This document shows, piece after piece, positions 1-3,480 of a DNA stretch of 25,040 nucleotides (position 1 is the first letter of the stretch; each line of letters starts with the position of its first letter). The notes beneath the pieces were generated by a model. That model ran no database searches, had not been told where the DNA came from, and saw only the letters and a list, made by a program, of their open reading frames with translations. The position numbers were made by a program, and so were the translations under genes. Source of the stretch: Chloroflexota bacterium (lineage in GTDB: Bacteria > Chloroflexota > Limnocylindria > Limnocylindrales > CSP1-4); contig DAIDTV010000001.1 of assembly GCA_027457005.1 (NCBI GenBank), forward strand, positions 272 through 25,311, in the 5' to 3' direction.

Positions 1-788
1 ATGAACGGGCGCAGCCGGTTCGACAGCTCGACCTGCGTCCGCTGTAACGCCGCGAGGCGCTCGTCGTCCGAGCCCTGGACCTCGGCCGGATCGTCGAGCC
101 CCCAGTGCAGGGAGTTGTGCTCGCCCGGGAAGACCGGGCAGGCCTGTCGCGCACGATCGCAGACGGTGATCACGTAGTCGAACGGCTGATCGAGGAACTC
201 CGCGACCGACTTGGACCTGGCGGCCGACCAGTCGATCCCCGCCGCGGCCAGCACGCGCACCGCGAGAGGGTGGACGCCGCGCGGCTCGGTGCCCGCCGAG
301 AAGACCTCGAAGTCCGGGCCCCCGTACGCGCCGAGCATCGCCTCGGCCATCTGGCTGCGCGCGGAGTTCCCGGTGCACACGAACAGCACGCGGACGGGGC
401 GGTCGGACATGGCACGTTCCTCCATGCTGTCCCGGGCACGGCCGGCCGCGGAGACGATCGATTCCAGGTCGGTCAGCTCGGCATCCAGCCGGTCGAGATC
501 GGCGCGGCTGCGCGCCACGGCCGCGCGCTGCTCGGCGATGAGCGGGACCAGGGTCGCGTCCGGCGCCGCCCGCTCGACGCACAGCGCGGCGACGCGTCCG
601 GCTCGCTCCGGCGACAGCCCGAGCCATCGCAGCGCGACCACGAGCCTCAGCCTGGCGAGGTCCGCCTCGCCGTACCGGCGATACCCGTTGGCGGCCCGCG
701 GGGCCGGCGGGAGCACGCCGGCCGACTCGTAGTAGCGCACGGCAGACGGCTCCACGCCTGCCTTCCTCGCGAGCTCCGAGACTCTCAC
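1..788 (-). CDS. MerR-family HTH regulator fused to an ArsC-type (LMW-PTP fold) arsenate reductase domain; 3' end runs off the window
   Basis: Manual translation from GTG at 788: [39 protein letters not shown] (MerR wHTH), a coiled coil, then with no stop [24 protein letters not shown]...[17 protein letters not shown]...HWGLDDP (ArsC P-loop CX5R plus the two resolving Cys). It is absent from the ORF track because its stop lies outside the window. Confidence 0.92.
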
Positions 789-794
789 CAGCCG

Positions 795-825
795 ACCGTA
801 CACCTTCGAGCCACTTGAAGGTCAA
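795..825 (-). promoter_or_regulatory. MerR-type sigma70 promoter (TTGACC-19 bp-TACGGT) with a 21-bp dyad operator
   Basis: Minus strand: -35 TTGACC at 825-820, 19-nt spacer, -10 TACGGT at 800-795, then 6 nt to the GTG start. The dyad ACCTTC-N9-GAAGGT (802-822) fills the spacer, the geometry of CueR-like boxes. Confidence 0.85.
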
Positions 826-832
826 GCAGCGA

Positions 833-904
833 GCCCCACGTTGCGGCTGGGCCCCACCCTGCGGCTGGGCCCCACGTTGCGGCTGAGTGCCACCCTGCAG
901 GCCC
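833..904. repeat. 18-bp tandem repeat (GCCCCAC[G/C][T/C]TGCGGCTG[G/A]), 3 copies plus 1 degenerate
   Basis: Units at 833-850, 851-868 and 869-886; degenerate unit at 887-904. Confidence 0.85.
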
Positions 905-987
905 GGGATCACCCTGCCGGTCGCACTGCGCCTGTGGCGCCGGGCACAGCCGGGCAGATCGGTCGCGTGACGTCGTAGTCTGTGCCG

Positions 988-1593
988 ATGCACGACCACC
1001 AGCACGGACACGAGCCCGCCGGCGGGCATCCGCACGAGGTTTCCGCGGTCTATGCCGAGGCTCTCGGCGGCTACCGGCGCTCGAAGGACCAGACGTTCGC
1101 GCACGACGCCGACAGTCCGCTCCTGCCCGAGGACCGGGCCCACTTCGGCGGCCTGCGGTACTTCGCGCCGGATCTCGGGTACCGGCTCGAGGGGGTGCGC
1201 GCGGAGCCGTATGCCGGCGAGGGCACCCCCGACTTCACGATGCAGACCTCCGATGGGCAGACGCGCCGTGCACGCCGCATCGCCACGCTGCGCTTCGAAC
1301 TCGGTGGCCGGCCGCTCGCGCTCCACGCCTACGGATTCGCGGATTCCGAGGAGGGGTCGCTGTTCATCCCCTTCGCCGACGCGACGAGCGGGCAGGAGAC
1401 GTATGGGGCAGGCAGGTACCTGGACCTGGAACCCGAGGACGATGGAAGCTACACGCTGGACTTCAACCTGGCCTATCACCCGCTGTGTGTCTATTCGCCG
1501 TACTTCTCCTGCCCGCTCCCACCGGCCGAGAACCGGCTCCCGGTCCGCATCGAGGCCGGCGAGATGCTGCCGGAGGGGATCGGCGGGCACTGA
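988..1593 (+). CDS. DUF1684-family protein with His-rich N-terminus
   Basis: Motifs FIPFADATSGQETYGAGRYLD and LDFNLAYHPLCVYSPYFSCPLPPAENRL are typical of DUF1684. ATG 988 is preferred over GTG 982 because it lies 6 nt after TAGTCT (976-981). Confidence 0.88.
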   Translation: MHDHQHGHEPAGGHPHEVSAVYAEALGGYRRSKDQTFAHDADSPLLPEDRAHFGGLRYFAPDLGYRLEGVRAEPYAGEGTPDFTMQTSDGQTRRARRIATLRFELGGRPLALHAYGFADSEEGSLFIPFADATSGQETYGAGRYLDLEPEDDGSYTLDFNLAYHPLCVYSPYFSCPLPPAENRLPVRIEAGEMLPEGIGGH

Positions 1594-2893: not shown

Positions 2894-3373
2894 CTACTCC
2901 CAGCGGTGATAGGCGAGATGGCCCGGCCGGACGGCCACGAAGATGCCACGGAAGGTTGCGCACCGCTCCTCGTGTGCCTCGAGCACGGACTCGACCGTGG
3001 CCCGGTCGCCGCTCAGTTCCACCACGCGCGCCCGCAGCGTGACCGGGCCGTCCGTCGGGGTCGGCCGCAGGAGGCGCACCTCGAATGAGGCGGTGACCGT
3101 GGCCGGGACCTGGTCGCTGCCCGCCGCCCGCATCAGGGCCACCGCCGCCGCCCAGTTGCTGTGACAGTCGAGCAACGTGCCGATGACACCGCCGTTGAGC
3201 GCGCCGGGGAACGCCTCGTAGCGGGTCTCGGGCCGCCACTCCGCGACGACCTCGTCACCGCGTTCGAAGCTGCGGAGGTGGAGTCCGGCAGGGTTGGCGG
3301 GCCCACAGCCGTAGCAGACGCTCCGGGGGGCCAGCAGCTCCTGCAGGCTCTGCCTGGCATGCGTCTCGGTCAT
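2894..3373 (-). CDS. PaaI-family (hot-dog fold) thioesterase
   Basis: Motifs CYGCGPANPAGLHL, FPGALNGGVIGTLLDCHS and VTASFEVRLLRPTP. ATG 3373 lies 7 nt after TACACT (3386-3381). Confidence 0.9.
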   Translation of the reverse strand: MTETHARQSLQELLAPRSVCYGCGPANPAGLHLRSFERGDEVVAEWRPETRYEAFPGALNGGVIGTLLDCHSNWAAAVALMRAAGSDQVPATVTASFEVRLLRPTPTDGPVTLRARVVELSGDRATVESVLEAHEERCATFRGIFVAVRPGHLAYHRWE

Positions 3374-3480
3374 GCGCGGCAGTGTACGCGGGGGTCCGCT
3401 CGCGGGACGTGGGCCGGGGCCTCGCGGCCGGAAACGGCGGGGCGGTGGCTGGATCGGCCCGCGTGCAGTACCGTGCACGG

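Follow-up and report, generated by a model that had tools for sequence, protein, structure and literature searches.

Bacterial arsenic regulation has been described almost entirely through ArsR repressors that sense As(III), and arsenate, As(V), is usually noticed after its reduction. In the MerR family, a promoter with a 19-bp spacer is normally weak without the distortion induced by the activator, and the metal ligands CueR Ser77 and MerR Cys79 head the dimerization helix. A route from As(V) to transcription is provided by the ArsR-ArsC (ArsRC) fusions, for example in Paracoccus sp., in which an arsenic regulator is joined to an arsenate reductase of the LMWP type (excerpts of the Chemical Reviews article PMC11672702). 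Another single-gene design is tipA of Streptomyces lividans, which excerpts of PMC7762955 describe as a 'minimal autoregulated', self-activating MerR system that makes TipAL and TipAS from two start codons. In the TipA class, according to the same excerpts, the long form is an activator and the short C-terminal domain neutralizes the drug; AlbA/AlbAS (bioRxiv 10.64898/2026.09.21.753095) is a further member of this class. Here we describe a gene that joins a MerR DNA-binding half to an ArsC reductase domain and lies at the left end of a 25,040-nt stretch of a Chloroflexota bacterium genome. This stretch, hereafter the window, covers positions 272 to 25,311 of contig DAIDTV010000001.1 in assembly GCA_027457005.1 (G000:C1:272-25311).

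The MerR-ArsC gene occupies positions 1..788 of the minus strand. Its codons run from GTG 788-786 to base 3, in a frame that is open across 803..3 and then leaves the window, and its 3′ end lies inside a scaffold gap of 10 N adjoining base 1 on the left. About 11-20 codons are missing from the end of the gene; relatives extend 11-38 residues (mode 18) past the last residue in the window, and this tail is basic. To the left of the gap, the end of a small convergent plus-strand open reading frame (ORF) is present (L001 1-261). The initial annotation, made from the letters alone, had read a MerR winged helix-turn-helix, its helix and a full ArsC domain in a single frame from GTG 788, and proposed a hidden Markov model scan with MerR_1 and LMWPc. 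This reading held. The protein begins with a MerR-like N-terminus (M-R-V-S-E-L-A...), and Pfam finds both domains well above its gathering scores: MerR_1 at residues 7-71 (E 1.2e-16, 61 bits against a cut-off of 21.6), MerR at residues 7-44 (49.4 bits, cut-off 28.2) and LMWPc at residues 139-244 (E 8.2e-19, 68.7 bits, cut-off 23.2). The word 'full' stands for the catalytic equipment, since the P-loop cysteine and both resolving cysteines are present, and fails for the end of the gene, which is lost in the gap. Likewise, the gene was indeed unlisted in the ORF track, as had been remarked, because its frame runs off the window end; it is listed once open ends are allowed.

Four segments can be delimited, all on the minus strand. 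The winged helix-turn-helix (residues 1-71, 576..788), which can be aligned from its first residue onward with the structures of CueR and MerR, is followed by a probable dimerization (coiled-coil) helix (approximately residues 77-117, 438..560). The Pfam model MerR-DNA-bind scores 19.9 bits, under its cut-off of 25.4; the alignment to CueR (1q05) and MerR (4ua1) nonetheless reaches residues 103-110, and the N-terminal 105-110 residues align to the CueR/MerR structures without a gap. An interdomain linker of constrained length (residues 118-130, 399..437) leads into a thioredoxin-type ArsC domain of LMWP fold (residues 131-262, 3..398), matched in Pfam, NCBIfam and the PDB; the distance from L108 to V134 is 25 residues in 52 of 78 sequences, with a range of 19-26. 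The top NCBIfam scores of the MerR half are those of CueR, MerR, ZntR and CadR, all far under their cut-offs (51.6 bits against 147.4 for the CueR equivalog), and the NmlR and SoxR models also score. The Pfam scan of the window protein gave no match to HTH_5, the ArsR/SmtB-type domain, and PF07739, the TipAS-type domain, is absent among its matches.

The C-terminal half resembles the thioredoxin-coupled reductases (S. aureus pI258 ArsC, B. subtilis ArsC, Deinococcus indicus ArsC2) in its CX5R(S) P-loop, two resolving cysteines and D-P acid motif. The P-loop CTGNSARS is encoded at 377-354, with Cys138 as the nucleophile, and the resolving residues Cys210 and Cys217 at 161-159 and 140-138 (all minus strand). 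The best NCBIfam model is arsC_pI258_fam, matched over model positions 1-127 of 129. The best PDB match of this half is 8p5n_A (E 1.7e-35), and B. subtilis ArsC (1jl3_A) is matched at E 2e-28. Excerpts of PMC10483234 identify 8p5n as D. indicus ArsC2, here with arsenate bound, and report that Cys15, Cys87 and Cys94 of this enzyme act in As(V) reduction. We rejected the possibility that the LMWPc domain is a protein-tyrosine phosphatase, given a Wzb-type score of only 21 bits, against 118.8 for ArsC, and the arsenic-gene neighbors described below. Unlike these reductases, the present domain is fused to a regulator, ends in relatives with the basic tail of 11-38 residues, and scores under the TIGR02691 cut-off.

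The fusion is real and conserved. Its architecture was sought in other genomes, as the initial annotation had advised, with the warning that homologs might prove to be two separate genes divided by a stop near 411-430. A protein-collection search scored 8000 candidates, of which 7599 reached E <= 1e-3, and the best 120 of these 7599 all carry MerR, MerR_1 and LMWPc, measure 264-289 aa and are 67-94% identical. Where a database name is given for one of these 120, it reads 'MerR family transcriptional regulator [Candidatus Limnocylindrales bacterium]' or 'arsenate reductase'. In 12 of 41 genomes of the same order, the bacterium's own included, we found 13 places that match residues 1 or 2 to 262, every one of them stop-free. 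All 12 genomes belong to the window's own family; a sister family, represented by 16 small genomes, gave a match to the ArsC part only. A species-genome scan (one genome per species), made with ArsC-part peptide patterns only and counted among the matches listed, added at least 22 full-length fusion loci among the 80 kept. At least 21 are labeled Chloroflexota (Limnocylindrales, 'Chloroflexia' soil metagenome-assembled genomes, Anaerolineaceae, Tepidiformaceae, Dehalococcoidia) and one Actinomycetes, and some of them lie on megabase contigs or, in one case, on a complete chromosome. Where relatives are close, their loci do not count as independent. The fusion persists to about 50% identity in several Chloroflexota classes; clustering at 50% reduces the family to a few representatives, and Pfam confirms both domains in two of them (P0122 and P0124). 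In the ESM Atlas, queried with homolog P0015, both domains are present in every member (100%) of three clusters, which count 158, 108 and 55 proteins, with Chloroflexota the commonest phylum.

Other two-domain relatives are tandem LMWPc-LMWPc proteins or ArsR(HTH_5)-LMWPc proteins, the latter represented by P0159, P0164, P0193 and P0212. In a quick tree of 249 ArsC domains (LG+G4, 132 columns), all 44 fused rows fall inside one set of 67 (SH-aLRT 95) together with 23 unfused rows; the 'Next' label of the loci rows in this tree comes from stop-to-stop frames and is unreliable. Since fused and free rows are mixed, several interconversions of the two forms would have occurred. One locus shows a longer frame: in L031 6001-7350 (CAVRZS010000004.1), the MerR-ArsC frame is open to 449 aa, with a partial match to an MIP channel at residues 394-447, which is either a frameshift, an assembly error or a triple fusion.

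The MerR likeness extends to the promoter. Upstream of the gene, we located a MerR-type promoter (795..825, minus strand) with the -35 element TTGACC at 825-820, a 19-bp spacer at 819-801 and the -10 element TACGGT at 800-795, and GTG 788 begins 6 nt after this -10. The spacer holds the operator dyad ACCTTCAAG-tgg-CTCGAAGGT (802..822, minus strand), so that a dyad operator within an over-long spacer of 19-20 bp, as in the MerR family, is present. Dyads of this ACCTTC...GAAGGT type resemble the CueR box, and the likeness to CueR, MerR, ZntR and CadR thus comprises the dyad in a 19-bp spacer as well as the gap-free alignment; unlike in these regulators, the gene behind the promoter is that of the regulator itself and is predicted to be leaderless. 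The pattern TTGACN-19 bp-TANNNT recurs in 27 of 32 loci, with a 19-bp spacer in every one of the 27, and the distance from the -10 to the ATG or GTG is 6-7 nt across the promoter-bearing loci. In two loci of Dehalococcoidia type (L045, L046), both half-sites of the dyad are altered together. A standard sigma-70 promoter for the fusion gene was also considered and rejected, as a scan of window positions 1-1100 for one with a 16-18-bp spacer was empty. The gene is predicted to be an autoregulated, leaderless transcription unit. Between the MerR-type promoter and a divergent DUF1684 gene lies an 18-bp tandem repeat (833-885, 2.9 copies, 88% matches).

The combined -35 and dyad pattern (<=2 mismatches) has a single site in the bacterium's own genome and likewise a single site in each of five relatives of 88-97% completeness. 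This site lies at the MerR-ArsC gene every time, and a control pattern gave 0 sites in all six genomes. With one such site per genome, at its own promoter, the protein would therefore control itself and the genes downstream and not a separate ars operon. A wider regulon was rejected on the same six genomes; the dyad alone (<=1 mismatch) has 2-3 further sites in each relative, against 0-1 for the control, and extra weak sites may exist.

A putative second start lies inside the gene, at the domain boundary. A Shine-Dalgarno-like GGAGGA at 423-418 precedes, by 7 nt, an in-frame ATG at 410-408 (408..423, minus strand; duplex energy -9.3 kcal/mol), which encodes Met127, the first residue of the ArsC part. 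An in-frame ATG (16 loci) or GTG (8 loci) lies no more than 14 codons from the first strand of the ArsC domain in 24 of 28 loci. We scored the 17 nt upstream of these codons against a generic anti-Shine-Dalgarno motif, using other in-frame positions of the same genes as background. The duplex reached -6 kcal/mol or better in 22 of the 24 loci, against 13% of 5842 background positions, and -8 kcal/mol or better in 17 of 24, against 4% of the same background; the windows were picked after the feature had been seen. These 28 loci are all but two of a set of 30: L027 and L037 were dropped when the regular expression for the first strand failed, and both show a linker Met by eye. The purine run is kept in differing reading frames, as E-E/E-D or R-R codons, despite a variable linker peptide, and this retention across codon phases points to selection on an RNA signal and not on the peptide. 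Furthermore, a Met lies within 12 residues before the first strand in 107 of 116 close homologs, and the free ArsC genes of relatives begin at a Met that matches Met127. In L117 (G017:C5) and L119 (G014:C419), a stand-alone ArsC that is 73% identical to the fused domain still has the end of the coiled coil, the Shine-Dalgarno sequence and the Met behind an upstream stop; these genes look like fused genes stripped of their MerR half. Taken together, these features suggest that the same gene probably also yields a free reductase from the internal start.

The comparison with TipAL/TipAS is one of design. There, a single, self-activated MerR gene has two in-frame products, and its C-terminal domain serves as sensor in the long form and as resistance effector in the short one (excerpts of PMC7762955); the same is predicted for the present gene. 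The N-terminal domain of TipA is also similar in sequence to the MerR half (2vz4_A, E 1.6e-7). Unlike in TipA, the C-terminal domain here is an ArsC enzyme of LMWP fold and not the TipAS drug-binding domain, and the ligand would be an oxyanion and not a thiopeptide. By analogy, the MerR-ArsC gene would work like a TipA module, while by domain content it is not a member of that class.

The initial annotation had also stated that the MerR half has a single cysteine and lacks the C-terminal Cys loop of CueR and MerR, and had proposed that the ArsC domain takes the place of the effector region. Both statements were borne out. The only cysteine of this half, counted from GTG 788, is C70 (581-579, minus strand); residues 71 to 137 are free of cysteine, and the ArsC domain takes up the position of the metal loop in CueR and MerR. 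C70 is nearly invariant, being conserved at >=90% of 78 sequences, and lies in the hinge before the dimerization helix. We considered whether it is the counterpart of MerR Cys79 and CueR Ser77, and rejected this because the alignments place D77 (560-558, minus strand), the first residue of the helix, at that position, with C70 seven residues earlier; the alignment is ungapped for CueR, and Bacillus MerR gives the same placement. D77 is invariant in 16 sequences and >=90% conserved in 78. The metal-ligand arrangement of the CueR/MerR/ZntR subgroup is thus not found here: there is no Cys loop, and an Asp occupies the ligand position.

The cysteines of the reductase are maintained. A count by regular expression gave 228 of 241 fused proteins with all four cysteines in place (that of the P-loop, the two resolving ones and C70); CTGN[SA]ARS is found in 112 of the 120 top homologs and the resolving-Cys motif in 119 of them. 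Three of the proteins form a small clade of their own. P0124, P0271 and P0272, the latter two 61-65% identical to the first, keep the fused domain whole while their P-loop reads SNFNAARG, with Ser for the nucleophilic Cys, and the first resolving Cys is lost; two of the three carry Tyr at position 70. They are probably pseudo-enzymes that have kept their fusion to MerR, and the retention of an ArsC domain without its nucleophile argues for a non-catalytic, sensor-like role.

The link to arsenic was sought among the neighboring genes, as the initial annotation had advised, and was found in relatives and not in the window. An arsenic-type neighbor lies within about 6-7 kb in 21 of 33 loci. Over these 33 loci, the neighbors include an ArsM-like methyltransferase and/or GNAT protein (9), ArsR (8), an MIP channel (5), an ArsP-type permease (5), Acr3 (3), a small thioredoxin (3), a second LMWPc gene (3) and a glyoxalase (2); the family name of each cluster comes from one or two of its representatives. 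A same-strand gene begins within 50 bp downstream in 7 of 29 loci, encoding an MIP channel (3), Acr3 (1), a glyoxalase (2) or an 83-aa ORF (1). In 14 of the 29, the downstream gene is convergent, and the fusion genes there would therefore be monocistronic. Gene calls in the loci come from a crude GC3-based picker, which missed at least one real gene of the window, for the thioesterase (2894-3478), and overlooked the fusion itself in L030, L031 and L049. In the window, the neighbors encode a divergent DUF1684 protein, a two-domain rhodanese, a thioesterase, a PEMT/ICMT-type methyltransferase and a nucleoside hydrolase. DUF1684 and the rhodanese were considered as parts of the system and rejected, neither being conserved beside the homologs. 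The bacterium's own genome (475 contigs, 60.6% complete) has two MIP genes and one ArsB/CitMHS-type transporter gene, without ars neighbors, and the MerR-ArsC gene is its only LMWPc match.

Several further genes adjoin the fusion in relatives. L025 4822-5535 is a second, regulator-like LMWPc gene beside MerR-ArsC (Phosphatase-like_N plus LMWPc, 237 aa), and in L034 and L036 a divergent second LMWPc gene (235 and 226 aa, clustered by BLAST only) adjoins it. A polyphosphate kinase 2 gene lies downstream on the same strand in two loci (L024 8007-9101, L047 8051-9028), which may reflect a phosphate link or chance. A calcineurin-like phosphoesterase (Metallophos_2) adjoins the fusion gene in L042, L034, L036, L031 and L041, overlapping its start by 4 nt in L042; we know of no role for this phosphoesterase in arsenic handling.

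The reading that we favor, and to which we give about an even chance, is that the gene is a minimal, self-activated resistance module similar to TipA, with an arsenate reductase at its core, and that its ArsC domain reads arsenic, likeliest as arsenate. The full-length protein would bind, as a MerR-family dimer, to the dyad within the 19-bp spacer of its own promoter, and the complete thioredoxin-type ArsC domain, held at the end of the dimerization helix by a short linker of fixed length, would be the effector module. The likeliest signal would be arsenate, through binding in the P-loop or through the disulfide cascade Cys138 to Cys210 to Cys217. In pI258 ArsC, the oxidized state of the Cys relay strongly rearranges the fold. 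A comparable change in the domain would reach the DNA-binding domains and turn the bound dimer from a weak repressor into an activator, and thioredoxin would reset the switch. Transcription would begin at or beside the GTG and give a leaderless mRNA, from which little full-length regulator and more free ArsC enzyme, the latter from the internal Shine-Dalgarno sequence and ATG, would be made. The long form would act as sensor and activator and the short form would supply most of the enzyme, the ArsC domain being both sensor and effector, and in some relatives an arsenite channel or pump encoded downstream would share the mRNA. The proposal of the initial annotation, that arsenate or phosphate binding or the redox state of the Cys relay could switch a MerR-type activator, is supported in part. 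That the ArsC domain senses arsenic is plausible; we infer activation (as opposed to repression only), the identity of the signal, and the two products with their ratio. The ArsR gene beside the fusion in eight loci hints, weakly, at two regulators reading different signals. A bolder version, which we regard as possible but doubtful, is that the protein would represent the first arsenic regulator of the MerR family and would sense arsenate directly in the cytoplasm through enzyme turnover, with the disulfide cascade of its active ArsC domain as allosteric switch, thioredoxin as reset, and the whole circuit of sensor, activator and detoxifying enzyme in one leaderless gene for two proteins.

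A number of observations weigh against the favored reading. No arsenic gene lies beside the window's own fusion gene, and 12 of 33 loci have no arsenic neighbor. We did not find acr3 in the 60.6%-complete genome, whose one ArsB/CitMHS-type transporter lies beside DJ-1 and Usp genes and not beside ars genes. The promoter is absent from 5 of 32 loci; of these five, three lie behind a same-strand gene, one has a decayed -35 with the dyad visible, and one shows nothing recognizable. The ArsC match to TIGR02691 (arsC_pI258_fam), at 118.8 bits, is under the equivalog cut-off of 174.3 in a window copy that lacks its C-terminal end. The fused ArsC domain is 72-77% identical to the free ArsC genes of relatives, and its sequence appears to carry no mark of specialization for sensing. 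The Cys-less clade numbers three sequences only, and the comparison of start sites is tempered by its generic motif, its windows chosen after the fact and the frequency of GTG in GC-rich DNA.

Four other explanations can be set against the same evidence. An assembly or frameshift artefact that fused two genes would suit a fragmented draft of 475 contigs and 60.6% completeness, with a scaffold gap abutting the gene, and has a practically negligible chance of being right given the same single frame in independent assemblies (120 of 120 best homologs, 13 places and at least 22 loci). A genuine fusion could also be without allostery: the MerR half would autoregulate, through constant binding or plain repression, or sense alone, the ArsC domain having become attached as a mere enzyme by loss of the stop codon between a merR-like gene and arsC, and the internal Shine-Dalgarno sequence and start being leftovers. 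The boundary does have the look of a former gene start, and free and fused ArsC interleave in the tree (23 unfused rows within the set of 67). We nevertheless consider this unlikely, because the fusion is kept down to about 50% identity in several Chloroflexota classes with a linker of constrained length, a MerR half reaching no further than the coiled coil lacks any effector site itself, and the Cys-less variants retain the ArsC domain. The promoter speaks in the same direction, since a 19-bp spacer is normally weak without an activator and the scan for 16-18-bp spacers was empty.

The remaining two explanations keep the switch and change its signal. Arsenite could take the place of arsenate, with thiolates of the ArsC cysteines, possibly together with C70 across the dimer, binding As(III) and driving the MerR switch as Hg and Cu do. 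C70 is nearly invariant (>=90% of 78) and in the hinge, the MerR half is most like the metal-sensing CueR, MerR, ZntR and CadR group, and in the known ArsR-ArsC fusions it is the regulator half that senses As(III) (excerpts of PMC11672702). Against this stand the invariant Asp, not Cys, at the MerR Cys79/CueR Ser77 position, homolog P0118, which has Tyr at C70 and yet all ArsC cysteines, and the adjoining ArsR in eight loci, which would make a second As(III) sensor redundant; we therefore regard arsenite as a quite improbable signal. A general sensor of thiol or disulfide stress, responding to oxidants or electrophiles, has a precedent in Spx, which uses an ArsC-like fold. Such a role would draw on the inherent redox activity of a three-Cys relay, and would suit a window whose neighbors include a two-domain rhodanese and no ars genes. 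The models of the MerR relatives NmlR and SoxR, moreover, give the MerR half a score. A stress-sensing role seems to us very unlikely in view of the arsenic genes near 21 of 33 loci, with arsenite channels or pumps directly downstream in 4 and glyoxalases in 2, and of the close match of the ArsC domain to arsenate-bound ArsC2 (8p5n; excerpts of PMC10483234).

Regulator-ArsC fusions (ArsRC) and self-activated MerR genes with two products (TipA) are known already. What appears to be new in the favored reading is their combination, though databases annotate it automatically. As in ArsRC, the fusion of a regulator to ArsC would give a route from As(V) to transcription; unlike ArsRC, in which the regulator half is an ArsR/SmtB repressor with an As(III) site of its own, the present gene has a MerR winged helix and coiled coil, and its 19-bp-spacer promoter leads us to expect activation by DNA distortion and not de-repression. 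No published description of the MerR-ArsC architecture was found in the literature searched, which lay outside subscription journals, and excerpts of PMC4531530 and PMC8060452 make no mention of such a fusion.

If the favored reading is true, a MerR activator with a reductase as its effector would follow a different logic from the As(III)-sensing repressors, with the turnover or binding of a substrate coupled directly to transcription. It would also supply biosensors with a natural part that responds to As(V); until now they have relied on engineered or natural ArsR-ArsC fusions (excerpts of PMC11672702). The MerR-ArsC gene would be a second example of the TipA design, with one gene, its own promoter and two predicted products, in another phylum and with an enzyme domain. 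From its sequence, it looks like a compact, self-inducing arsenic defense unit of a soil Chloroflexota bacterium. The gene is common in Limnocylindrales-type soil Chloroflexota, a group without cultured models, and would thus bear on how abundant soil bacteria handle arsenic.

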